From Allosphingosinicella sp. (GTDB lineage Bacteria; Pseudomonadota; Alphaproteobacteria; Sphingomonadales; Sphingomonadaceae), in contig NZ_DASVTH010000032.1 of assembly GCF_036387615.1 (NCBI RefSeq), forward strand, positions 7,491 to 71,490: DNA of 64,000 nt, given 5' to 3'. The notes under the pieces are model-generated. The model ran no database searches. It was given only the letters and a program-made list of their open reading frames with translations, and had not been told where the DNA came from. A program made the translations under genes and the position numbers. Of this stretch, positions 5,235 through 49,999 are shown piece by piece (within the stretch, counting starts at the first letter, position 1; each line of letters starts with the position of its first letter).

Positions 5235-6200
5235 ATGGTCGCGACCCATTCCACCCGCATGTTGATTTTAGGCTCGGGGCCGGCAGGTCTGTCGGCCGCG
5301 ATCTATGGCGCACGCGCCGGAATGGCGCCGATCGTCGTGCAGGGCATCCAGCCGGGCGGGCAGCTCACCACCACGACCGATGTCGAGAATTATCCCGGGT
5401 TCCGGGACGTGATCCAGGGTCCCTGGCTGATGGAGCAGATGCAGGCCCAGGCGGAGCATGTCGGCGCGCAAATGATGTGGGATCAGATCGTCGAGATCGA
5501 CCTCAGCCGCCGCCCGTTCCGGCTGATTGGCGATGGCGGCACGATCTATTCGGGTGATGTGCTGGTGATCGCGACCGGCGCGCAGGCGCGCTGGCTTGAG
5601 ATTCCGTCTGAAGAGCATCTTAAAGGCCGCGGAGTTTCCGCCTGCGCGACCTGCGACGGCTTCTTCTACCGCGGCAAGAAAGTCGCCGTGATTGGCGGTG
5701 GCAACACCGCTGTAGAGGAGGCGCTCTACCTCACTAACCACAGCCACGACGTGACCCTGATCCACCGGCGCGACTCGCTTCGCGCCGAGAAGATCCTGCA
5801 GGAGCGCCTGTTCAAGCATCCGAACATCAAGGTGCTGTGGAACCGCGAAGTCGCCAAGTTCGTCGGTGGCGGCCAGCCCGAAGGCTTGGTCGCGATCGAC
5901 CTTCGCAATACTCGCACCGGCCAGATCGAGCGGCTCGAAACCGAGGGTGGGTTCGTCGCGATCGGCCACAGCCCGGCGACCGAGCTCTTCCGGGATCATC
6001 TCGAGCTCGACGAGGATGGCTATATTAAGGTCGAGACCGGAACGACCAGGACGAGCGTGCCCGGTGTGTTCGCGTGCGGGGATGTGATGGACAAGGTCTA
6101 TCGCCAGGCGGTTACCGCCGCGGGCACCGGCTGTATGGCTGCGCTTGATTCAGAGAAGTTCCTGGCCGAAGCTGATTTCGAGGCTTCACTGGCCGCTTAG
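5235..6200 (+). CDS. trxB: Thioredoxin reductase
   Basis: GSGPAG, CATCDG, GGGNTA, IHRR, RQAVTAAGTGC. Confidence 0.97.
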   Translation: MVATHSTRMLILGSGPAGLSAAIYGARAGMAPIVVQGIQPGGQLTTTTDVENYPGFRDVIQGPWLMEQMQAQAEHVGAQMMWDQIVEIDLSRRPFRLIGDGGTIYSGDVLVIATGAQARWLEIPSEEHLKGRGVSACATCDGFFYRGKKVAVIGGGNTAVEEALYLTNHSHDVTLIHRRDSLRAEKILQERLFKHPNIKVLWNREVAKFVGGGQPEGLVAIDLRNTRTGQIERLETEGGFVAIGHSPATELFRDHLELDEDGYIKVETGTTRTSVPGVFACGDVMDKVYRQAVTAAGTGCMAALDSEKFLAEADFEASLAA

Positions 6201-36735: not shown

Positions 36736-38187
36736 TCAGCGCCTCGGCGCCACCAGCGAGCCTATGAAGTGAATTGCGAACGGATTGGGCTGGAACCCCG
36801 TCAGGCGCGGCGAGACCAGCGACCAGCGGACCGGGGCGGCCAGGGGAATGAAAGGCACCGCGTCAGTCAGCAGGCGATCGGCGCTAGCCAAAGCGTCCCG
36901 GCGCTCGCCGAACGAACGTGCATTCCGGGCCGTTTCCAACGCGGCATCCGCCTCCGCGCTGCAGACCATGCTCGCCTGGCAGGTGAAATGGCGCAGGTAC
37001 CAGCTGGCGAGGCTTGCCGGGGCGACCTCGTCCAGGAAGACGAGATCGGCGCGGTCCGCCGGGCCCACCTGTTCGGCATCCACGCCGACCGCGCGCCAAT
37101 CCCGGCGCAGATAGGCGAAGATCAGCCGAGCGCCGGGACCATCGGGCATCCTCACGCGAAGCTTGGGCGGATCGTCACCGTCGATGCGACCGGCGAGGAT
37201 TGCCCGCGCAGCAGCCCGGCGCGCGGGCAGGGGGTCCCCAGCCCAGGCTGGCAGCGCGGGAGTCGGTTGCTCCTCCACTCCTGTAGGCAGCAGGCTTGTG
37301 CGGGGCGCCAGGTTCGGCACGGCAAGGGCTCCCACCAGGGCGTCGCGATCGAGCGCCATGCTCAGGGCTCCGCGCACGTCCGCATCGGCGACCAGACCAG
37401 TTCGGCTGGCGATCGCCAGCCCGAACAGGCCCGCGGCCGGATCAAATCGCAAAGCAGCGGCCGGCGCTCCGGAAACCCTGGCGATCGGCAGGCCGGCGGC
37501 CGTTCCGCCGGTCACGAGCCCGGCACCCCCGGCACGAAAGCGTGCGACGGCAAGTGCAGCCGGCTCTCCCCTCAGCTGAATTTCCGGCGCTTCCGCCCGG
37601 TCCTCCGCTTCATCAGCCGGCCTTGGGCGCAAGATGAGCGCGCCCTCGGGGCCGGCTTCGGCCGTGAACGGACCTGTGCCCTGCCCCGCGCGGATGATCC
37701 CCATTTCGGGCTGGGCGAGCAATTGCAGGAAATTGGGCCGCGGCGAGCGCAACCGGATCTCGATCACGGTGTCGGTCATGGCGACGATCTCCGCGATCGC
37801 GCCCATCACCGGTTTCAGGCGGTTGCGGCTCGCCCGGCTCGCCGCGGCCCGGAGGCGGACGGCGACCTGCTCGGCGGTGACAGTCGAACCGTTCGGCCAG
37901 GTCGTGCGCGCAATACGGAAGATGTAGCTGGTGCCATCGTCCGTTACCGTCCAGCTCTGCGCCAGGGCCGGCTCGATCTGGCCGGCGGCATCGAAACGGA
38001 CCATCCCTTGCGCAACGGCGCTTGTGAGCATGGCCGAGGGCGCATCGAGCGCGGTCCGGTTCGGGTTCGCCAGAACCGGCGCCGTCCCGATCGCGCTGAC
38101 AATGATCGGGCCGCTCTCGCCCTGCCGGCAGCTGGCGAGCATCAGGGCTGCCGCGCCTGTCGCAATAAAGCCTGCTCGAATCACCAT
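36736..38187 (-). CDS. ABC transporter family-5 substrate-binding lipoprotein
   Basis: Lipobox MLASC, IEPALAQSW..DDG.SYIFR. Confidence 0.82.
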   Translation of the reverse strand: MVIRAGFIATGAAALMLASCRQGESGPIIVSAIGTAPVLANPNRTALDAPSAMLTSAVAQGMVRFDAAGQIEPALAQSWTVTDDGTSYIFRIARTTWPNGSTVTAEQVAVRLRAAASRASRNRLKPVMGAIAEIVAMTDTVIEIRLRSPRPNFLQLLAQPEMGIIRAGQGTGPFTAEAGPEGALILRPRPADEAEDRAEAPEIQLRGEPAALAVARFRAGGAGLVTGGTAAGLPIARVSGAPAAALRFDPAAGLFGLAIASRTGLVADADVRGALSMALDRDALVGALAVPNLAPRTSLLPTGVEEQPTPALPAWAGDPLPARRAAARAILAGRIDGDDPPKLRVRMPDGPGARLIFAYLRRDWRAVGVDAEQVGPADRADLVFLDEVAPASLASWYLRHFTCQASMVCSAEADAALETARNARSFGERRDALASADRLLTDAVPFIPLAAPVRWSLVSPRLTGFQPNPFAIHFIGSLVAPRR

Positions 38188-38224
38188 CCAACTGTCGCAT
38201 AAATCAGGCTGCGGCGGCGCGCCA

Positions 38225-38240
38225 TTCACCGCTTTTTAAC
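38225..38240 (+). promoter_or_regulatory. CtrA-like binding site upstream of the PilZ gene
   Basis: TTCA-CCGCTTT-TTAAC, one mismatch to TTAA-N7-TTAA. Confidence 0.4.
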
Positions 38241-38279
38241 TGTGCCGCCCGTAGCTGGGCGAAATCATTGGGACACCTC

Positions 38280-38606
38280 ATGATGCCCGCCCAGGAAAGC
38301 TCCCACTTCGTTGAACGCCGGTCCGAGCGTCGACAGGTCGACTCGGCCGCGGAGCTGCGCCATCAATGGTACAGCGTGGAAGTGAAGGTATGCGACGTTT
38401 CGCAATGCGGCTTCATGGCCGAGTGCGGGGACGCGGTCGCGATCGGCAGCCATGTCACGCTGGACGTTCCAGGTATCGGCCCTGTCCGGGCGCAAGTGCG
38501 ATGGCAGCTTGGCGGCAAGATGGGCGGCAGGTTCCTCGATCCGATCCGGTTGACCGAGTGCGAATGGACTGCGGTGAAAGCGGAATGCCCGGAGCTTCTG
38601 GCCTGA
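38280..38606 (+). CDS. PilZ domain protein
   Basis: RRSERR (RxxxR) and DVSQCG (DxSxxG) motifs. Confidence 0.88.
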   Translation: MMPAQESSHFVERRSERRQVDSAAELRHQWYSVEVKVCDVSQCGFMAECGDAVAIGSHVTLDVPGIGPVRAQVRWQLGGKMGGRFLDPIRLTECEWTAVKAECPELLA

Positions 38607-38610
38607 AGGC

Positions 38611-38664
38611 TGGTGCGGACGGCGGGACTCGAACCCGCACGCCCCGGGGGCAGAAGATTCTAAG
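38611..38664 (-). pseudogene. Orphan 3' half of tRNA-Leu (anticodon loop to CCA); left att junction of the island
   Basis: Minus strand CTTAGAATCTTCTGCCCCCGGGGCGTGCGGGTTCGAGTCCCGCCGTCCGCACCA, with no 5' half adjacent. Confidence 0.9.
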
Positions 38665-38849
38665 CTTGGGGCTTTGGGGTAAGGTCGTTCCCGACGGCGA
38701 CCTGTCTTCGCGCGAAAAAGCACTCGATCAGCCACTTAGGCTTACTCGGCCGGTTGCGCTCCTACTCTGCTGGCGTCTGGAACAAGCCGCGGGACTAGCG
38801 GTCGCGGCTCCCGGCGATCCTATTTAGAGGGGCCGGGAAGGAGGACACG

Positions 38850-39114
38850 GTGCGCGTCAAGCTGACCAAATCGGCGGTCGATGCGGCCGCCGGCCGCGAC
38901 CGAGTACGAGCTGAGACACGGTAACGCCCGGCTTCATGGTGCGTGTGCAGCCAAGCGGGCGCAAGACTTTCATGCTGGCGTTCAGGACCGAAGCCGGCGT
39001 GCGGCGCAAAGTCAAGCCCATCCTTGGCGGCCTCAAGCTTCGAGACGTAACCCGCCCGAGCGGGTGGCGGCGCTCAGGGGCGCCATGCTTCGGGGGAAGG
39101 TACGGATCAGCTAA
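38850..39114 (+). pseudogene. Tyrosine integrase remnant (arm-binding DUF4102-like N-terminus plus internal fragments)
   Basis: AAGGAGG RBS, GTG; VKLTKSAVDA..EYELR..PGFMVRVQPSGRKTFML..RRK, then PILGGLKLRDVTR; frameshifts and large deletions. Confidence 0.78.
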
Positions 39115-39243
39115 CTCCCGCGGACGTGGCCGGCGATCCATTCGACGAGGTTGTGCAGGTGCCGCCGGTCACTCCGGACTCCGTGACAAGCCTTTCCTCC
39201 TACGCCGTTGAAAAGATATGACGGGTGAGTCAAAACCCAAGGC

Positions 39244-39786
39244 ATGGGGAGCGTCGAAGGGGATTGCTGCGGGCCCGACCAGATGGAGCGGGTTCTCGAG
39301 TGCTGTTACGACGACATGCGCAGGCTGGCGCGCCGGATGGTGGCCGGCGACTCGCTCCGGATCGTGTTTCAGCCTACGGACCTTGCCAACGAAGCGGTAT
39401 TGCGGCTTTTGCAATCCGCCCCGGTCGCGGTCCAAGATCGAGGTCACCTGCTTGCGCTCGCGGCCCGAACGATTCGGCGCGTGCTGATCGACGAGGCGCG
39501 CCGGCAGGCACGGATCAAGCGAAGACGACCTGAACTGCTAACCCGCTTGCCCGGCGCGCCGCCGACCGCCCTGATCAGCGTGGAGGATTTCGATGCTGCC
39601 TTGGCGGCGCTGGAGCGCTTCTCGCCCGAGCATGCCCGAGTAGTCGAGCTGCGCTTCACCTTCGGACTGACGGTCGAGGAGGCCGCGGCCACGCTTGGCG
39701 TTGCCGAACGCACGGTGAAGCGGCGCTGGCAGGCGGCGCGGGCCTGGCTGCAGGACCATATCGGCAACGCCCATGAGCCAGGCTGA
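39244..39786 (+). CDS. ECF sigma factor of the kinase-associated type (ECF43/EcfK-like)
   Basis: FQPTDLANEAVLRL, RRVLIDEAR, VVELRFTFGLTVEE, VKRRWQAARAWL; overlaps the kinase gene. Confidence 0.88.
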   Translation: MGSVEGDCCGPDQMERVLECCYDDMRRLARRMVAGDSLRIVFQPTDLANEAVLRLLQSAPVAVQDRGHLLALAARTIRRVLIDEARRQARIKRRRPELLTRLPGAPPTALISVEDFDAALAALERFSPEHARVVELRFTFGLTVEEAAATLGVAERTVKRRWQAARAWLQDHIGNAHEPG

Positions 39787-42079
39787 GATCGAGCTCCGCG
39801 CGCTCGCCATCTTCGAACGGCTGGCGGAGCGGCCTGGCGACCGGCACTTGCGCGAGCGCCTGTTGCGCCGGGAAGCGGCCGAGGTTGCCGACCGCGTCTC
39901 CGCACTGGAACGCGCCAGCCAAAGCGCCCGGCGGTGGATGCCGACCGATTTCGACGGCGTTTCCGGCGAGGCGCCGCCCCCGCCCGAGCGGATCGGCCCG
40001 TTTCGACTCACCGCTCAGATCGGCGAGGGCGGTATGGGCCAGGTCTGGCGCGGCGAGCGCGACGACGGGCTCTACGATCAGGCGGTCGCGATCAAGCTGA
40101 TCCACGCTCACCTCACCCCGATCGCCGCAACGCGCTTCGCCGACGAACGCCGCATCCTTGCCCGGCTGGAGCATCCGGGCATCGCGCGGCTGATCGACGG
40201 CGGGATCGCCGAGGGCGGCCAGCCTTATCTGGTGATGGAGCTGGTCGAAGGCCGCCCGATCGACGAGGCCTGTGACGGCCAACCGTTGCGCGAGCGTGTT
40301 GCGACCTTCATCAAGGCCGCCGATGCCGTGCAGTTCGCGCACAGCCGGCTGGTTGTCCACGCCGATCTTAAGCCCTCCAACATCCTCGTTGCCGGCTCGG
40401 GCTGGGTCAAGCTGCTCGATTTCGGCATCGCCCGCCTGCTCGACGGCGATGAGCGCGCCGAGGCGCCCCAACACCCCATGACTCGCGCATATGCCAGCCC
40501 CGCGCGGGTGGCCGGCGCTGGGCCGACGATCGCCGACGATGTTTACGCGCTCGGGATGATCCTGCGCGAGCTGATCGGTGCGGCGGGCGACCGGGACCTC
40601 GACGCGATCGCCGTCAAGGCCGCCGCCGATGACGAAGCCGAGCGCTACGGCAGCGTCACCGCGCTGATCGGCGATCTTGAGCGCTGGCAGGAGCGCCTGC
40701 CAGTCACCGCTCGGCCTGCGACCCTAGGCTATCGCTCGGCGCGTTTCGTTGCGCGCCACCGACTGGGAGTTTCCGCGACTGCCGCGGCGCTGGTGCTGCT
40801 GCTCGCCACCAGCGTCGTAGCGACCCTGAGCTATTTCCGGGCAGAGCGCGCCCGTGCCGAGGCGAGCGCCCGCTTCGAGGACGCGCGCGGCACGTCCCGT
40901 TACCTGCTCTACCGGCTCTCCGACCGTCTGGAGCGCCAACCAGGCTCGCTTCCTCTGCGAGCCGAAGTCGCGCGCGTTTCACAGCATTACCTGACCCGCC
41001 TTGCTGCTAGCGAGAACGCTCCGGCCGAAGTCCGGCTGGAGGCGGCCGAAGGACTGATTCGGTTGGCGGAACGGCTGGGAGCGCCCGGGCGCCCCAGTTT
41101 CGGGCAAGGCGAGGCTGCCCGCGCCAACCTGGAGCGAGCCATCCAAGCAATTGGGGAGGATGCCAGCCCACAGGCGGCTCAGGTGAGGGCTCGAGCATTG
41201 ATTGCGCGGGCGCGGCTTGAAATGCACACGTTCAACAACCTGCCGGCGGCGAGCCAGGCGCTACACGCAGCCGCGACAATCGCCCGGTCGTCTCCCCGGC
41301 ACGAGCTCGGGGCGGACTTCCTCGTGGCCCTTGCTTCGCTGCGCATGGCACAGGGCCGCTATGCCGACACGATCCGTCACACGCGCGCCGTCCTGGACGT
41401 TCGCGTTCCACCGAACGACTATAAGGGTCTGGTGACGCAGGCCTACGCAACGGAGCTTCTGGGCGACGCAACTTATTACTCTGACCCGACGATCGGTGTG
41501 GCCAATAGCATCGCCGTTTATCGAAGGCTTATCCGCCAATGGGAAGCGATCGGCATCCGCTGGCCTGGGGATCCGCTCGCCAGCCGCCGGGTCCCGATGG
41601 CCCGATACTCGCTCGCGACCACCCTGCTTGGCCATGACCCAGCGACCGGCGCGCGGGAAGCGGAGGCGCTGCTGGCGAAAGCTTCCCGCGAGATGCGGGC
41701 GGTCAGCGAAGCTGAGCCGAGCGACCGCGAGACGGCACGTCAGTACATGGTGGTGCGGGGCGGACATGGGCAGGCGCTGGCGGCTTTGCGTCGCTTCGAT
41801 GAGGCAATCGCAATCGCGCGGGAGCTGATTGCATTCCGCCTCGAAGAATGGAGGTCGGCGCCCACCGAACCCCGTCGCCTGCGGGAGTATGCGGTAAGCA
41901 TCGCCATTCTCGCCGACATGGAGGCAGATGCGGGCCGCGAGGCGAGCGCGTGCTGGCGATACGGGAAGGTGATGCAGCTGTTCGAGCAGTTGCGGCGCAT
42001 CGACCGGCAAGTCAGGCTCGATGAGGATTATGGCGTGCGCCTCGTCCGGCAGCGGCAGGCAAGGCACTGTCGCAGCTGA
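39773..42079 (+). CDS. Membrane-anchored Hanks-type Ser/Thr kinase with extracytoplasmic TPR-like region
   Basis: GEGGMGQV, VAIK, HADLKPSN, DFG, one TM, then helical repeats. Confidence 0.92.
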   Translation: MSQAEIELRALAIFERLAERPGDRHLRERLLRREAAEVADRVSALERASQSARRWMPTDFDGVSGEAPPPPERIGPFRLTAQIGEGGMGQVWRGERDDGLYDQAVAIKLIHAHLTPIAATRFADERRILARLEHPGIARLIDGGIAEGGQPYLVMELVEGRPIDEACDGQPLRERVATFIKAADAVQFAHSRLVVHADLKPSNILVAGSGWVKLLDFGIARLLDGDERAEAPQHPMTRAYASPARVAGAGPTIADDVYALGMILRELIGAAGDRDLDAIAVKAAADDEAERYGSVTALIGDLERWQERLPVTARPATLGYRSARFVARHRLGVSATAAALVLLLATSVVATLSYFRAERARAEASARFEDARGTSRYLLYRLSDRLERQPGSLPLRAEVARVSQHYLTRLAASENAPAEVRLEAAEGLIRLAERLGAPGRPSFGQGEAARANLERAIQAIGEDASPQAAQVRARALIARARLEMHTFNNLPAASQALHAAATIARSSPRHELGADFLVALASLRMAQGRYADTIRHTRAVLDVRVPPNDYKGLVTQAYATELLGDATYYSDPTIGVANSIAVYRRLIRQWEAIGIRWPGDPLASRRVPMARYSLATTLLGHDPATGAREAEALLAKASREMRAVSEAEPSDRETARQYMVVRGGHGQALAALRRFDEAIAIARELIAFRLEEWRSAPTEPRRLREYAVSIAILADMEADAGREASACWRYGKVMQLFEQLRRIDRQVRLDEDYGVRLVRQRQARHCRS

Positions 42080-42183
42080 GTCCCGGCAGAAGTGAAAAAA
42101 TCCGAAATCAGTGGCCCCTAATCGACCCCGTTGACGCACTTGCCGTGTGAAAGCCCGGAGGAGCGGGCTTGGGGGAGGTTTCC

Positions 42184-45100
42184 ATGGCGACGATCAACGG
42201 CGGCATTGATCCGGACACGCTGAACGGCACGACCGGTTCGGACATCATCAACGGCTTTGGCGGCGACGACACGCTCGACGGCAAGGAGAGCGGCGACACA
42301 CGCTCAACGGGGGCGACGACAACGACATTTTGAAGATGTCGCACTCCGGAACCGACTTCATCAACGGCGACGCGGGATCGGATACTCTGGTCCTGGACTG
42401 GCGGGCTGCAACCGGCGGATATTTCACCTTCTCACGGCAGACCTTCACGCCAAACCCGAATGGCGGCTTCGACGGCCGATACGAGAACGTCAACGGCTAC
42501 ACCGTCAACTTCACGTCGGTCGAACATTTCGATATTACAGCGCACGACAACGATATCGGCGACCAGCTGCGGACCGGTAGCGGCAATGATCGCCTCTTCC
42601 TCCTCGGCGGCAACGACTATGTCGATGTGGGCTCCGGGCTGGAGACGGCCGACGGCGGTGCCGGCGACGACGGCATCTCGGCCGATCTGTCGGCGACCTC
42701 TACACCGATCACCTGGAACCTGCAGGCCAACAGCTATGCAGGGCCGGCCGGAACAAGCTTCACCAACTTCGAATATTTCGGGCTGTTCAGCACTGCCGCT
42801 TCCGGCGCGCTTCGGACCGGCAGCGGCGACGACACGATTGTCACGAGCCTGAATTTGCATCGCGACATCATGCACCTGGGCGGCGGCAACGACACGGCCA
42901 GCGTGTTCCGCGGCTCCGACACGGTGCACGGTGATGCCGGCAACGACACCCTGACCATCGATTGGAGTAGCTCGTCGAGCGGCTCCGCATACTTCACCTT
43001 GCACTCGTCTGGCTTCTCGCTGCTCGTAAACTCGGCTGGCGGCTTTGACGGCTTTTACGACAATATCAACGGATCGAGGGTGACGTTCACCTCGATCGAC
43101 CACTTCCACATCACCGCGCATGACAACAATATCGGTGATCAACTCCGCACCGGCAGCGGCAATGACCGCGTGTTCCTCCTCGGCGGCAACGACTACGTCG
43201 ACGTGGGTTCCGGACTGGACACGGCCGATGGGGGCGCCGGCATCGATGGCATCTCGGTCGACCTGTCGACCACCTCGGCCCCGGTCATCTGGGATCTTCA
43301 GAAGAACAGCTATGCAGGCCCGGCGGGAACAAGCTTCACCAACTTCGAATATTTCGGGCTGTTCAGCACTGCCGCTTCCGGCGCGCTTCGGACCGGCAGC
43401 GGCGACGACACGATCGTCACGAGCTTGGAATCCCAGCGGGACATCATGCACCTGGGAGGCGGCAACGACACGGCCAGCGTGTTCCGAGGCTCCGACACGG
43501 TGCACGGGGATGCCGGCGACGACACTCTGATCATTGATTGGAGCAGTTCCTCAAGCGGCTCTGCCTATTTCACGACTTCCCGCCACAGTCTAAGCGTCAG
43601 CTCGAACGGCGGCTTCGACGGCTTCTACGACAACGTCAACGGGTCAACGGTCACCTTCACGTCCATCGAACATTTCCACATCACTGCGCATGACAACAAT
43701 CTTGGCGACGACATCAGGACGGCGGGCGGCAACGACCGGGTGACGGCCCTCGGCGGCAACGATCGGGTAAATGTCGGCGCGGGCGATGACGTCGTGACCG
43801 GCGGCGCAGGCAACGACACGCTGATCGGAGAAGCGGGCAGCGACACGGCCGTGTTCAGTGGCAAGCGCTCCGACTACCGGATCACCTACAACGACACCAG
43901 CAAGACCTATTTCGTCAGCGACCAGCGCGCGGGCGCGCCGGACGGGACCGACTCGCTGTTCGAGTTCGAGTTCGTTCAGTTTTCGGACGGCATCCGCGGG
44001 CTCGGCCAAGGCGCGAGCGCCGGAATGCTTAGCGACGTGATCATCCGGCCTGAGCATGACGGGAGCCGAGCGACCTTGGTCGAGTCGGTCAACGCGTTCC
44101 ATTTGGACGTTGCTGCCCTTGAGGGTGGCGGCTTCGCAATGCTTTCGTCAGATTTCATCAACGAGGACGGCGAGTCGGTCTATCGCATCCGCTTGTTCAA
44201 CGATGAGCGGCAACAGGTTGGGGAGCCGATTCAGCTTAGCACCACACAGCATTCCCCTCAGCCCCACATCACGGCTTTGTCGAACGGCCGTTTTGCAGTG
44301 ACTTATACGATCGATCACCCGGTCGACAGGGCCGATGTGATCATCATCACCCGCATCTTCGAGGCGGACGGCGCCGAGGTTGGAGAGCCGAAGACGGTCG
44401 ACAATTCACAAGCCGAGGACCGGACGCTGATCGACGTGGAGGGGTTGTCCGACGGCAGCTACGTCGTGGTCTGGTCGGAAGGGATCATCGAACAGCAGAC
44501 GACCTATGGCCAGCGTTACGCTCCGACTGGAGAAACCATCGGCCAAAGCTTCACCCTGGCGGGAGCCAAGGAGTCTGTTGGAGACATCGAAGCGCTGCCC
44601 GACGGGAAGTTCGTCATTTCCTACACGACGCAGTTCGTGGATCGCGACGCGCTGAAGATCTACCCCCTGCAGGGCTTCGTCCGGCTGTTCTCTAACGATG
44701 GGACTCCGGCGACACAGTCTATCGCGGTGACGGAACCGACCGCCAGCCCTTTCGCTGCCGAGATCGCTGCCCTGGACAATGGCGGGTTCGCAATCGCCTA
44801 TCGGCAGGACCAAGGCGCAATCCATGTCCAGGTGTTTGACGCAGCCGGCCAGAGGGTTGCGAACGACGCGGTCGTCACGACCTTGTCGCAGATCGATCTC
44901 GACGGAATCCGCGCGGTGCAAGGCGGTTTCCTGGTTTACGGGTTCAGCCCCCACCACAATTTCATCGGCCAGCAATTTACCGCGGAGGGAGAGCTCGTCG
45001 GGGCGGGTTTCGACATCACTCCGCGCGACGACCGTGAACGGCAATCCGAGGCGATCGGCAAGGCAGGCTTCGTCGAGCTGGCCGATGGGCGCCTCCTGGT

Positions 45101-48100
45101 GGTGTATCCCGATTACCCGAGGGTGTCGCAAGTCGATGATGCCGGGGAGATCGTGTTCGACTTCGACAGCACCAGCTTGATCAACTCGACCGTCCTGACG
45201 GCGCAGTTGGCCATTCCCGGTACGCAGAACAACAACATCCTCACGGGGTCGATCGGCGATGATCGGCTGACAGGGCTGGACGGCAATGACGACCTGTTCG
45301 GGAAGGGTGGCGACGACGTTCTGATCGGCGGTCCGGGCGCGGACAAGCTGGACGGCGGCGCCGGAACCGACACGGCCAGCTATCTGGGGTCGTCAGGCAT
45401 CAATCTTTCGCTGTCCAACCCTGCCGCCAATTCTGGCGATGCGGCCGGCGATACGTTCAACGGAATCGAACGCTTCGTCGGCTCGGAGTTCCAGGACATC
45501 ATGGCCGGCGACGATACGGCCAATCATTTCGACGGCGCCGCTGGCGACGATTTCCTCTTCGGCTTGAGCGGGAACGACACGCTGATTGGCGCGCTTGGCG
45601 ACGATGTTCTGGAAGGGGGGCGCCGGAGCCGACCATCTGGATGGCGGCATCGGGATCGACTCGGCAAGCTATGTGGGAGCGGCAAGCGGGGTCACGGTCG
45701 ACCCCGTCAACCCGGCCCTCAATACCGGAGATGCCGCCGGGGACACGTATCGTTCCATCGAAGGCGTGCTCGGCACTGCCTTTGGCGATCACATCAGTGG
45801 CGGTGACGGACTGAACCGGTTCGAGGGCGGGGGCGGCAACGATCACCTGGACGGCCGCGGCGGGAAGGACGCGCTGTTCGGGGGCGATGGCGACGACACG
45901 CTGATCGGCGGCGCGGGCGATGATGTCCTAAATGGCGGGGAGGGCGCCGACACACTGGACGGTGGCGATGGATCCGACACCGCGACTTATGCCGATGCAG
46001 CAGAGTTCGTGAACATCGATCTGGAAGCGCTGGAGAAGCGAGCCGGGCCGCCAAGCCAGACACGCTCATCTCGATCGCGAACCTCGTCGGCACCACTTAC
46101 GACGATACGCTGCGCGGTGATGGAGCGAACAATCTTCTGATCGGGGGCGCTGGCGATGACCGCATCAACGCCCGGGGCGGCGACGACACGATCGAGGGAG
46201 GGGAAGGTGACGACAAGATCGCCGGCGGCGATGGCACCGACACCTTCCTCGTCAGCGGCCGCTTCCAGGACTACGAGATCACCGCAACCCAGACCCATGT
46301 GCGGGTGCGCGACAAGCGCGAAGGCTCGCCGGATGGCACCGACATCCTGGTCGGCATGGAGAAGATCAGCTACGGGACTCCCTCCACATCCGGTTTCGTT
46401 ATCGACGATCTTCCCCCGCTCGCGCCGCCGGTGCAGGTGCAGCCCGGCAAGACTTACGATCTTTCCGAGAATACCGGCTTTGTCGGCACCGCGCAGGAGC
46501 TCAACCTCACCAGCTTCGCCTTTGGGGGCGAGAGCGCGGCCAAGGCGACGTTCGAGGGCGTGTTCTTCAACGTGCTCGGCTCCGTCCTGAACCCGCTCGC
46601 GGCCGCGCTGAAGATCGGGTCGATCAAGATCAGCCTCGACACGAATGGGGACGGCGCCGCCGACACGCTGTTCACGATCGAAGATCCGGTCCGCAACCTC
46701 AGCTTCGAGATTACTAGCGATGGAACGGACTCGAAGATCATCCTGCACGAGCTCACCTCGTCCACGGCCGGTGCGGACACGATCACGGGCACCGACAATC
46801 CCGACTATCTGGATGGCCTTGCCGGGGACGATACGTTGAACGGCGGCGGCGGCTCGGATGCTCTCGCTGGCGGCGCGGGCTCCGACACCCTGTCCGGCGG
46901 CGCGGGCCGGGACGATCTGAGCGGTGGCGACGGTGCCGACCTGCTGGACGGCGGCGCCGAAGCCGATACCATGAAGGGCGGCGCCGGAAGCGACCTGTAT
47001 CTCGTGGATGATGTTGGCGACGTGGTGATCGAGGCCGCGGGCGAAGGTATTCGGGACGAGGTCCGCACCACGCTCGGCAACTATGCGCTGCCGGATGACG
47101 TCGAGGTGTTGACCTACACCGGCTCCTCGGGCGCGAGCGGACTTCGGGGCAATGCCGGGAACAACCTGATCACCGGTTCCTCGCTCGGTGACCTGATCTT
47201 CTTGAACCAGGGCGGCGATGACAGCGCTTCTGGCGGTGCTGGCGATGACGGTTTTTATTTCGGCGCGGCGTTTACGGGCGCCGACTCGGTGGATGGCGGC
47301 AAAGGGGCGCTCGACCAGATCGGCTTGCAGGGCGACTATTCCGCGGGAGTGACGTTCGGGGGCGGCAACGTCAATGGCATCGAGCAGATCGTGCTGTTGC
47401 CGGGTTCGAACTCGCGCTTCGGCGACACGTCCGGCGGCTCCTACAGCTACGATTTCGCCTGGAGCGGCGGCCTTGGCGTGGGGCAGCGGCTGGTGGTCAC
47501 CGCCAACACGTTGCGCCTTGGCGAAAATCTGACCTTCGACGGTTCGGCCGAGAAGAACGGCTTCTTCCTCGTCTATGGCGGCCACGGCATCGACACCCTG
47601 ACCGGCGGGGCCGGCGACGACGGCTTCTTCTTCGGGCGCGACGGTCGGTTTGGGCCGGACGACAAGCTCGATGGCGGCGCCGGCTCGCTCAACCAGCTTG
47701 GGCTCCAGGGCGACTACACCGGCCAGTTCGCGATTGTGTTCGGGGCCGATCAACTGACGAACATCGAGCAGATCGTGCTCCTGACCGGCGGCGACACGCG
47801 CTTCGGAGGTGGCGGCAGCGGCTACAGCTACGATCTCACCATCAACGACGGTAACCTGGTCGCCGGCGGAACCCTGGTTATCACCGCCAACCGACTGGCC
47901 GCGCACGAGACGCTGACCTTTGACGGCTCGGCCGAGACGGACGGCCGCTTCCGCATCTTCAGCGGAAACGGCGCCGATACGATCATCGGTTGCGCGGGCG
48001 CAGACGAGATCCACGGCCGGGGCGGCGTCGACCGGATCAACGGCGGCGCGGGCGCCGATCGGATCATCGGCGGGCTGGGCGGCGACTTCCTGACCGGCGG

Positions 48101-48470
48101 CGACGGCGACACGTTCGTCTACGCGACGGCCGCCGAGTCGACGGGTCTGGGCTTCGACACTCTGATCGGGTTCGACTTCCAGGTCGACCGGGTCGACCTG
48201 CCGGGCGACGCGCCTGCTTTTTCCGATGTCGTGAAAGGTGCGCCGCTTGCACAGGCGACGTTTGACATCGACCTTGCGGCCGCGCTCGACGGGCTGCTCG
48301 GCGCAGGCGAGGCGGCGGTGCTGGTTGCGGGCCAAGGCGATTATGCGGGCCGGACCTTCGGCATCGTCGATGCGAACGGGGTGGCCGGCTACCAGGCCGG
48401 CGAGGATTATGTGTTCGAACTCGTCGATCCCGTCGTCCCGCCCGACCCCACTACCGACTTCTTCATCTAG
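42184..48470 (+). pseudogene. Large RTX/hemolysin-type Ca-binding repeat protein (about 2,100 aa) with three frameshifts
   Basis: RBS plus ATG (MATINGG..); continuous GGxGxD repeats across frame changes near 42296, 45615-45620 and ~46045, joining ORFs 42330-45806, 45586-46140 and 46299-48470. Confidence 0.85.
42330..43800 (+). repeat. Tandem 576/570-bp (about 190-aa) internal repeat, about 2.5 copies
   Basis: GGFDG motif at 42462, 43038 and 43608; 42750-42838 is identical to 43326-43414. Confidence 0.9.
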
Positions 48471-48499
48471 GCGGCTGGGAAGCAGGGAGAAAGAGATAC

Positions 48500-48690
48500 G
48501 GCCTGGATCAACCTCGCCGATGAAGCGCCACTACGTCATCACAAGCATCGTCAGTGCCGATCGGACCGTCTTCAACATCAAGGGCAACGATTACCGGCTG
48601 GTGGTGGCAGTTGACCTAAGAAGGCGATTGCCTGGATCAAATGGTTCGCAGGCGCAAGGATCATGGTCGCATCCACGTGAAGGAGGTTGA
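48500..48690 (+). pseudogene. higB: HigB toxin remnant
   Basis: SIVSADRTVFNIKGNDYRLVVAVD, then frameshifted AWIKWF; N-terminus missing. Confidence 0.8.
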
Positions 48691-48692
48691 GC

Positions 48693-49070
48693 ATGGCAAC
48701 TGAGCTGAAAACCATCCGCAGCGAGGCGGACGATGATGCGCGATGGAGGAGTCCGCCGCGCTTTGGGTGCGAAGAGCGGCACTCGCGAGGCGATCGGCTT
48801 GACCCGCTCGTGACCTTGATCGACGCTTATGAAGCCACGCATCATGCGATGGACGCTCCCGACCCTGTCGAGGCGATCAAGTTCCGCATTGAGCAGCAGG
48901 GCCTGACCCCTCACGACCTTGAAGGCGCGATTGGCACCCGCACGCAAATCGCGGAGGTTCTGAATCGCAGGCGCGGCCTCTCCATCCACACGATCCGGCG
49001 CTTGCACAGCAAGCTCGGGAACCCCGCAAAGGTGCTGATTCGCCCTTGGCTGCAAGGAAGCAGCCTGTGA
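48693..49070 (+). CDS. higA: HigA antitoxin (HTH), possibly degenerate
   Basis: LKTIRSEAD, LVTLIDAYE, PDPVEAIKFRIEQQGL, EVLNRRRGLS..IRRLH. Confidence 0.82.
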   Translation: MATELKTIRSEADDDARWRSPPRFGCEERHSRGDRLDPLVTLIDAYEATHHAMDAPDPVEAIKFRIEQQGLTPHDLEGAIGTRTQIAEVLNRRRGLSIHTIRRLHSKLGNPAKVLIRPWLQGSSL

Positions 49071-49092
49071 AGGCTTTCCCTAACAGGAAAGG

Positions 49093-49395
49093 TGGTGCGG
49101 ACGGCGGGACTTGAACCCGCACTCCCGTTCGAGAAGCAGATTTTCTTACCACTTCGACTTTCGCCGCCGCCCGCAACAGGCGTTCGTGGTCTGGACTATC
49201 CCTTCGCCTTAGCCATCAGGCCGTAGGCGCCGCCCGTCTAGTCTCTACACCTTCCCGGCCGGAAGCCGGGCTTGGCTCGGGATCGGCAAGGTTTGGCACC
49301 CCAGCTTTCCCCGAATTTGAGCGGTTCTACTCCGAGCGTTTCCCCCCGGGCACTCCTGTGAAGTCTGCTGCGTCTACCGATTTCGCCACGTCCGC
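49093..49395 (-). tRNA. tRNA-Leu(UAA) with group I intron (exons 49361-49395 and 49093-49144)
   Basis: Spliced 87-nt cloverleaf GCGGACGTGGCGAAATCGGTAGACGCAGCAGACTT|AAAATCTGCTTCTCGAACGGGAGTGCGGGTTCAAGTCCCGCCGTCCGCACCA. Confidence 0.93.
49145..49360 (-). ncRNA. Group I self-splicing intron (trnL/IC3-like), 216 nt, no ORF
   Basis: P AAATTCGGGGAAA, Q GATCCCGAGCCAAG, R GGTGTAGAGACTAGACGG, S AAGGGATAGTCCA; P7 GACTA/TAGTC; P1 with U.G at the 5' splice site; terminal G. Confidence 0.92.
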
Positions 49396-49588
49396 ATTGC
49401 CGGCGTAGTGCCACAGCGCAGGCTTTCGCGCGATGGCTTGTTTTGGCTCAAGCGCCGGGCTCTTGCCTCCCCGCGGACCCTTCGAGCACGTCAGAGCATA
49501 CTGCCTGACTGCGGCCGCCAACTAAGTCATTGCTAGGGGAACGAGGATTCGGCGCAAAAAGTCGGCGTCACGCGAGAAAACAGTTTTC

Positions 49589-49623
49589 AAGTCTCCGGCG
49601 TCTACCGGTTCCGCCACGTCCGC
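49589..49623 (-). pseudogene. Orphan 5' half of tRNA-Leu; right att junction of the island
   Basis: Minus strand GCGGACGTGGCGGAACCGGTAGACGCCGGAGACTT followed by non-tRNA sequence. Confidence 0.9.
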
Positions 49624-49720
49624 GCTGACGCCCTGCTAGCCTTGGCCGCACTGCCCGCGAAGGGGAAATCCGCGCAAACGCTCAATGCGGGTCGAGGACC
49701 CCTCAATGAGCTGGCATCGC

Positions 49721-49999
49721 TCAAACGTTGAGACGTTCGCGCATTTCCTTGCCGGGTTTGAAGTAGGGCACACGCTTGGCGGTGACGTCGACCGCTTCGC
49801 CGGTCCGCGGGTTGCGCCCTTTGCGCGCATCGCGCTCGCGGGTGGAAAATGCGCCAAAGCCGCGCAATTCCACACGGCCGCCTTGCTGCAACTGGTCAGT
49901 GACGGAATCGAAGAATGCCGTGACGACCCGTTCGATCTCCTTGCCCGTGAGATCGGGATGGTCATCGCACAGCTTCTGGACGAGTTCGGAACGGATCAC
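49721..49999 (-). CDS. ihfB: Integration host factor beta subunit
   Basis: IRSELVQ, RVELRGFGAF, GRNPRTGE, PYFKPGKEMR; downstream of rpsA. Confidence 0.95.
   Translation of the reverse strand: MIRSELVQKLCDDHPDLTGKEIERVVTAFFDSVTDQLQQGGRVELRGFGAFSTRERDARKGRNPRTGEAVDVTAKRVPYFKPGKEMRERLNV

Follow-up and report, generated by a model that had tools for sequence, protein, structure and literature searches.

A decayed genomic island that splits a host tRNA-Leu(UAA) gene and carries an intron-containing tRNA-Leu(UAA) gene in Allosphingosinicella sp.

Introduction

Some integrating elements destroy a tRNA gene of their host and supply a whole tRNA gene in its place. This destroy-and-replace integration was published for actinobacteriophages (Guerrero-Bustamante and Hatfull 2024, PMC10865867), and further cases are the pelagiphages HTVC119P and HTVC200P, with targets including tRNA-Leu(TAA) (10.1101/410191), and prophages of Sinorhizobium meliloti at tRNA-Leu(UAG) (PMC11476347). 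Here we describe a stretch of 64,000 nt (the window) from the alphaproteobacterium Allosphingosinicella sp. (assembly GCF_036387615.1), in which a decayed island of about 10.9 kb splits the host tRNA-Leu(UAA) gene and carries a tRNA-Leu(UAA) gene interrupted by a group I intron. We regard this layout of split host gene, carried intron gene and decayed island as nearly certain. We also think it probable that an element split the host gene without rebuilding it and that the intron of the carried gene, which breaks the same 7-bp sequence, hides this spare gene from the integrase.

In PMC10865867 the word intron occurs solely in a reference title, and the word intramolecular is absent. According to a review, there is little evidence for horizontal movement of bacterial tRNA introns between species (PMC3984707). 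Split tRNA genes were proposed to impede integration (hypothesis of Randau and Soll, as cited in PMC4033280). An earlier reading of the window from its sequence alone (the original prediction) took the combination found here to be undescribed. This was too broad, since whole-tRNA replacement is published, in Alphaproteobacteria at tRNA-Leu(TAA) too (10.1101/410191). In the full-text literature, from which subscription journals are largely absent, we found no paper that joins destroy-and-replace integration with a carried, intron-split tRNA.

Results

Structure of the Split Locus

The source genome (G000) is 87% complete and consists of 66 contigs; the window is part of contig C32. Read along the minus strand, the locus comprises ihfB, the 5' half of a tRNA-Leu gene, 189 bp, the intron-containing tRNA-Leu(UAA) gene, about 10.4 kb of cargo, an integrase remnant on the plus strand, the 3' half of a tRNA-Leu gene and a PilZ-domain gene. 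All minus-strand parts were at the positions originally predicted. The orphan 5' half (49589-49623) belongs to the left attachment site attL (49585-49623, minus strand) and matched tRNA-Leu exon profiles with 26.9 bits (E 4e-7). The orphan 3' half forms the right attachment site attR (38611-38664, minus strand) and matched at 38613-38659 with 32.4 bits (E 4e-9). Two orphan halves on one strand, 10.9 kb apart, are present as predicted, with scores far above chance.

Joined at their common CTT, the halves form an 86-nt tRNA that ARAGORN recognizes. The expectation of a full tRNA-Leu was met in this respect, but the anticodon is called TAG and not TAA, because both copies of the 7-bp loop sequence are mutated. 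The left copy is CTTGAAA (49585-49591) and the right copy CTTAGAA (38658-38664), each one substitution away from CTTAAAA in relatives. A tRNA-Leu(UAG) gene was ruled out as the split gene: the gene of the relatives is UAA, and an intact TAG gene is located on contig C17. Since each core copy is substituted, no crossover point would rebuild a UAA gene here. The att core comprises 7 bp in the related genome G171 and 9-12 bp in G009, G015, G047, G054 and G104. One same loop position is altered in three left ends, those of the window, L222 and G075 (CTTGAAA twice, CTTTAAA once), which could be drift or selection locking the element in.

Contigs of sequencing run X1, which may be the source sample, tile 49000-49800, bridging attL, and 37000-42779, crossing the attR junction, with zero differences and a depth of 36-49; no listed piece covers the entire island. 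The attR junction was also crossed by contigs of X2. The crossed junctions speak against misassembly, which the original prediction had named as a possible weakness. X1, X2 and X4 also contain joints without the island, but these differ in their variable arms and stem from other organisms, so they were ruled out as evidence of excision.

Empty Sites in Related Genomes

An intact, intronless tRNA-Leu(UAA) gene was found in 122 of 156 genomes of the genus, three unpublished ones (G065-G067) included, as had been expected for the empty site. The intron was found in 10 of the 156 genomes, none of which has an intact intronless gene. An orphan 5' half is present in nine of these ten and both halves in eight, with shared cores of 7-12 bp. 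In G019 a 3' half is not visible, and in G049 neither halves nor an integrase accompany the intron gene present at the site. In 18 of 20 loci the joined halves matched the empty-site gene better than the spliced carried gene did (80-85 versus 73-77 of about 87 nt). In relatives' loci, ihfB lies less than 600 bp upstream of the intact tRNA gene in 18 of 20 cases and a PilZ gene less than 1.5 kb downstream in 10 of 20. The halves are the host's tRNA-Leu(UAA) gene.

We also considered classical integration, in which the intron gene would be the host's own, 38611-38640 an ordinary 3' duplication, and the 5' half unrelated or an assembly artefact. The match of 29 of 30 nt between 38611-38640 and the 3' end of the intact gene would fit this, as would the carried-type host gene of some relatives (G003, G104) and the intron gene without halves in G049. 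However, the orphan 3' piece reaches as far as the anticodon loop and agrees with the gene at empty sites, both halves with common cores occur in eight genomes, and contigs cross both junctions. Empty sites in relatives hold one intronless gene, not the intron gene together with the 5' half. The pattern is also not that of a target-restoring element: halves are present at both junctions, and the intact gene is internal and of another sequence type. We give classical integration almost no credence.

In G003, G104 and G019 (L063, L058, L036) the host gene is intronless, and its 5' half is the same, or almost the same, as the carried exon of the window, hinting at host capture or at intron loss after domestication.

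The Carried tRNA-Leu(UAA) Gene

When introns were allowed, ARAGORN found the carried gene at 49093-49395 (303 bp, minus strand), with the 5' exon at 49361-49395, a 216-nt intron at 49145-49360 and the 3' exon, in which CCA is encoded, at 49093-49144. The intron, which has no open reading frame (ORF), matched the Rfam family Intron_gpI with 46.3 bits (E 1.8e-10). Because this is below the gathering score of 50, default scans miss the gene: default ARAGORN and Rfam scans of the window at the gathering score detected neither the intron gene nor the halves. The intron folds with a P1 helix containing a U.G pair at the 5' splice site and shows compensatory changes in 20 of 83 pairs among 8 aligned copies, the structure being derived from this same alignment. 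Its insertion after CUU (after U34), the U.G pair in P1, the terminal G and spliced exons that form tRNA-Leu(UAA) are those of class Leu.3Ug (IC3). A complete tRNA-Leu(UAA) gene with a group I intron right after CTT, inside the right end, had been predicted and is borne out by both matches. Splicing would still give a working tRNA.

The 189 bp between attL and the carried gene (49396-49584) represent an arm of the element, with similar spacing in G171, G957, G958 and G959. The promoter of the tRNA gene and the arm sites of the integrase are presumably located there; a scan of 49000-49800 for the sigma-70 consensus gave 0 sites.

The carried gene was the only UAA tRNA found in the 87%-complete assembly of G000; a second one, which would have spoken against the prediction, was not detected there. 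The 2032 crude ORF calls contain 433 TTA codons, spread over 364 of them; one of these is trxB, whose codon 12 at position 5268 is TTA as originally noted. From the TTA counts and standard wobble rules, we predict that UUA decoding in this cell relies on the carried gene. The dependence on the island that had been proposed is thus predicted for the 303-bp gene but not for the island as a whole. As the integrase and both cores are lost, permanent dependence on the intron gene is predicted, and the rest of the island would be free to erode. Where relatives have an intact element, its precise excision would restore the host gene. The empty sites with one intronless gene and the single UAA tRNA of G000 support the proposal of destroy-and-replace integration.

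Integrases and Islands of Relatives

The integrase remnant (38850-39030, plus strand) corresponds to the N-terminus of a tyrosine integrase of the Arm-DNA-bind_3/DUF4102 type and points into the island. It comprises about 60 codons, frameshifted and with stops, and is 53% identical over 38 aa to the integrase P0004 of G171 (E 4.7e-7); the remnant ORF itself had no Pfam match. P0004 is intact (422 aa, PF13356 and PF00589). The G171 island has the same layout over 81 kb, with the 7-bp core CTTAAAA and conjugation genes (PF02534, PF04610, PF00437). The islands of G957 (35 kb) and G959 (101 kb) have this layout too, with intact integrases that are 58-61% identical to P0004. Judging from these relatives, the element of the window was probably a DUF4102-type integrative element (type A), similar to the conjugative element of 81 kb in G171. 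The DUF4102 integrase expected at the far end is therefore intact in G171, G957 and G959, but the window holds a decayed remnant. P0004 had no match among viral contigs. In G957 we observed a second layout like type A at tRNA-Leu(CAA) (L495:1480-1770), where an orphan half with C32 is followed about 195 bp on by an intronless spare gene with U32.

A second island family (family B) has the order attL, integrase, intron tRNA, cargo and attR in 7 genomes of the genus, with the core GACTTAAAA and a length of 20-30 kb where both ends are visible. Its integrase is about 22% identical to P0004 in the best stretch. The islands of type A and family B carry different tRNA lineages, both with introns. 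Assignment of the window to family B was ruled out, as the family B integrase gene is not in G000. Family B integrases occur in 27 of 401 genomes of the order and 18 of 401 genomes of the class, and not all of them use destroy-and-replace; some adjoin intact tRNA-Met or tRNA-Arg genes. At nine loci (L368, L377, L385, L387, L400, L402, L415, L419, L426) a whole attP with arm-motif repeats flanking the core precedes a family B integrase; these are free or relocated forms of the element.

Distribution of the Intron

An intron-first scan of GTDB genomes, covering 80 of at least 120 loci, gave 47 tRNA-Leu(UAA) intron genes. An orphan 5' half was near 13 of these, which come from groups that include Alphaproteobacteria and Acidobacteriota; another two have the integrase directly upstream, and two lack the flank for the test. 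Among the viral contigs L064-L143, many low-GC (guanine-cytosine) phages contain tRNA clusters in which tRNA-Leu(UAA) and further tRNA genes are interrupted by this type of intron, and in L066, L067, L078 and L104 it lies in apparent protein-coding genes. A whole copy about 82% identical to the intron tRNA of the window is contained in 1266 plasmid records, mostly from Enterobacterales, and was unannotated in 19 of 20 listed. On pCTX-M3 (NC_004464.2:61823-62121; L498:3830-4300) it follows a short tail of a tRNA 5' half, near aac(3)-IId. In an Acidobacteriaceae genome (L188:7355-9733) we observed a minimal island of about 2.3 kb, with a 5' half, an intron tRNA 47 bp later and a 3' half; no integrase was found in it. 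The suggestion that the intron gains a horizontal route is supported by its presence on two island families, phages and the plasmid records.

Similar arrangements were found for tRNA-Lys. On the viral contig L082, which encodes a PF13356-type integrase, the attP core has the same sequence as the tRNA-Lys(CTT) loop, and 118 bp from it lies a tRNA-Lys(CTT) gene split by an intron. Gordonia phage Daredevil (NC_048021.1, about 41820-42300; L497:3705-4185) has an unannotated tRNA-Lys(TTT) gene that contains a group I intron of 238 nt; the attP, at a distance of 169 bp, agrees with the tRNA exons over 16 bp. ARAGORN found this tRNA at a lowered threshold; the intron scored 106.5 bits with the intron profile and had no Rfam intron match. 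Daredevil is said to lack its own tRNA and to form clear plaques (PMC10865867). Either the gene was missed, or the intron copy fails to complement. An A at position 54 was dropped as a reason for a disabled tRNA; the working tRNA of Fionnbharth has the same T arm.

Carried tRNA Genes and Their Attachment Sites

The following course of events would account for the locus. The element would have integrated at the 7-bp anticodon-loop core, cutting the host tRNA-Leu(UAA) gene and leaving the target unrebuilt. Integrase and carried tRNA would lie on opposite sides of attP, as suggested by relatives, and in the excised circle some 190 bp would separate attP from the spare gene. If the spare gene held the target uninterrupted, it would compete with the chromosomal site, and recombination within it would destroy the needed gene. 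Carried genes would hence tend to differ from the att site, usually by an intron for UAA and, for CAA, by an exchanged base in the stem or at position 32. Later decay would have removed the integrase and both cores and left the intron gene.

We compared carried tRNA genes with att sites by starting from the integrase, because this avoids selecting on the intron. Ten distant viral integrases (L438-L447) were excluded before the table of 135 family B integrase loci was made. In 63 of the 135 loci either an att site or a carried tRNA was missing from view; the remaining 72 gave 66 elements after removal of 6 near-duplicates. Thirteen att sites, ten free attP forms among them, were read by eye. 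Among 35 UAA-targeting elements, 31 carry an intron, one a loop change (U32) and three a stem change. The 29 CAA-targeting elements comprise 4 with intron, 15 with a loop change, 8 with a stem change and 2 identical to the att site; one of the 4 intron spares is a non-cognate UAA gene. Both Ser-targeting elements are identical to the att site. The 9-bp att core was identical in 4 of 66 elements, that is in 4 of 31 intronless spares. Among intronless CAA spares 2 of 25 equal the att 9-mer, compared to about 0.60 expected from the host pool, with kin that are not independent. On a FastTree tree with 71 rows, intron status requires 15 changes, and 10 independent pairs tie UAA to the intron (6.9 the same way, 0 opposite, median p 0.016). 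In L383, L408 and L409 the spare tRNA-Leu(CAA) gene of family B has its intron after CUC, with C at -1.

In one alternative, destroy-and-replace integration takes place as described, and the intron rides along as a neutral passenger: mobile tRNA-Leu(UAA) genes would be drawn from phage tRNA clusters and other bacteria, a pool in which this intron is frequent, and stem differences alone would deter the integrase. The intron is frequent in phage tRNA clusters and present in resident genes too, and published actinophages do without introns, as do elements of this integrase family that target CAA or Ser genes, all of which a passenger would explain. On the other hand, the intron is found in the genus in 9 of 9 split loci and one unsplit locus, versus 122 intact intronless genes. 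Two island families with different tRNA lineages both have introns, identity with the att site over 9 bp is rare among intronless spares (4 of 31), and the sole intronless UAA spare beside an orphan half (L388) has an altered loop. We judge the neutral passenger to be unlikely, but as the most serious of the alternatives.

A benefit of the intron at the level of RNA or defence, against anticodon nucleases or tRNA-targeting spacers, would make the overlap with the att site a reflection of shared use of the anticodon loop. Introns in tRNA clusters of phages without a related integrase nearby would fit such a benefit, and tRNA-degrading defences are discussed in PMC10865867. The spliced loop would, however, equal the host loop, so a nuclease would see the same target, and the C32/U32 and stem swaps of intronless spares are left unexplained. 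Such a benefit appears very improbable to us.

Several observations weigh against a shielding function of the intron, or against our view of the locus in general. The pairs that tie UAA to the intron link it to the isotype, as hitch-hiking also predicts. The 7-bp loop is identical to the att site in 15 of 66 elements, and 9 bp are identical in 4. G453 has kept its 9-bp core identical, at a distance of 300 bp from attL; its spare gene was not found on its attR contig. The 7-bp loop is unchanged in each of the 7 intronless actinophages examined, and in two of them 10 bp are shared. The spare gene of L426 differs from its attP solely two bases before the loop, and the att site of L437 is uncertain. 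No orphan half was seen at 34 of the 47 GTDB loci, and in all five half-less loci that were searched genome-wide the intron gene is the sole matching copy. Intron tRNAs are common in phage tRNA clusters without a related integrase nearby, clear plaques have been reported for Daredevil (PMC10865867) although it carries an intron-split gene, and the G000 assembly is 87% complete. The intron is not required and is one of several ways in which spare genes differ from the att site. The chance that it shields the spare gene from the element's integrase we put a little better than even. The original prediction that the intron hides the tRNA from the integrase is plausible, but many relatives are intronless.

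Cargo and Flanking Genes

The cargo is encoded on the plus strand. It starts with an extracytoplasmic function sigma factor (39244-39786, PF07638) and a Ser/Thr kinase (39773-42079, PF00069). Three ORFs with RTX calcium-binding repeats follow in successive frames at 42330-45806, 45586-46140 and 46299-48470, with PF00353 in the first and third. They are probably one large gene that is now broken (42330-48470); the frame breaks look real, since X1 contigs match most of this stretch without differences. The region 48514-49070 comprises a partial HigB-like toxin (PF09907 at residues 93-129 of ORF 48238-48690) and an antitoxin-like ORF (48687-49070) with a weak match to the helix-turn-helix family HTH_3 (E 0.002). 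Pfam scans of the island ORFs revealed no phage families, so the island does not qualify as a temperate phage, and the ORF list and Pfam scan of the window showed no conjugation genes in the island. The host flanks are ihfB (49721-49996, minus strand, PF00216) and the PilZ-domain gene (38268-38606, plus strand, PF07238).

Discussion

If the proposed shielding is true, it would provide a function and a vehicle for bacterial tRNA group I introns, which are patchily distributed without homing endonucleases. A broader claim would be that self-splicing introns serve as self-immunity devices of widespread elements that break an essential tRNA gene and bring a replacement, that these elements are the main vehicle moving ORF-less tRNA introns across bacterial phyla, and that many scattered resident intron genes are remnants of decayed islands. 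The window would then represent an intermediate stage of decay and G049 the end stage. We hold this broader claim tentatively and would sooner doubt it than accept it. Destroy-and-replace integration extends from phages to conjugative and small islands, and its spare genes and island ends are overlooked by standard tRNA finders and island mappers. The reading of the published Daredevil case changes as well, since a phage listed without tRNA (PMC10865867) carries an intron-split one beside attP.

Classical tRNA islands (Islander, PMC4383910) share the tyrosine integrase and the anticodon-centred crossover with the locus described here. They restore the target by a carried fragment, whereas the element in the window leaves two halves. 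According to the hypothesis of Randau and Soll, too, interruption of a tRNA gene at the DNA level blocks integrases; there archaeal hosts guard their own genes, while here the element would guard its spare gene from itself. The classical Leu.3Ug introns (Williams preprint) agree with the intron of the window in the position after CUU and before AAAA, the U at -1, the terminal G and the lack of an ORF. In that preprint introns are a feature of tRNA genes, with no tie to split genes or island-borne copies. The three CAA spares with C at -1 resemble Williams' unexplained Leu.3Cg class.

The pelagiphages and the S. meliloti prophages are alphaproteobacterial as well; a tRNA-Leu gene is broken in its middle, and a whole replacement is carried. 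Unlike the island, they are phages, and the word intron occurs 0 times in the texts of 10.1101/410191 and PMC11476347. With the actinophages (PMC10865867) the island shares the tyrosine integrase, the short anticodon-loop core, the target that is not rebuilt and the cognate tRNA that is carried. In contrast to them, it is a non-phage island of an alphaproteobacterium, and its spare gene contains a group I intron.

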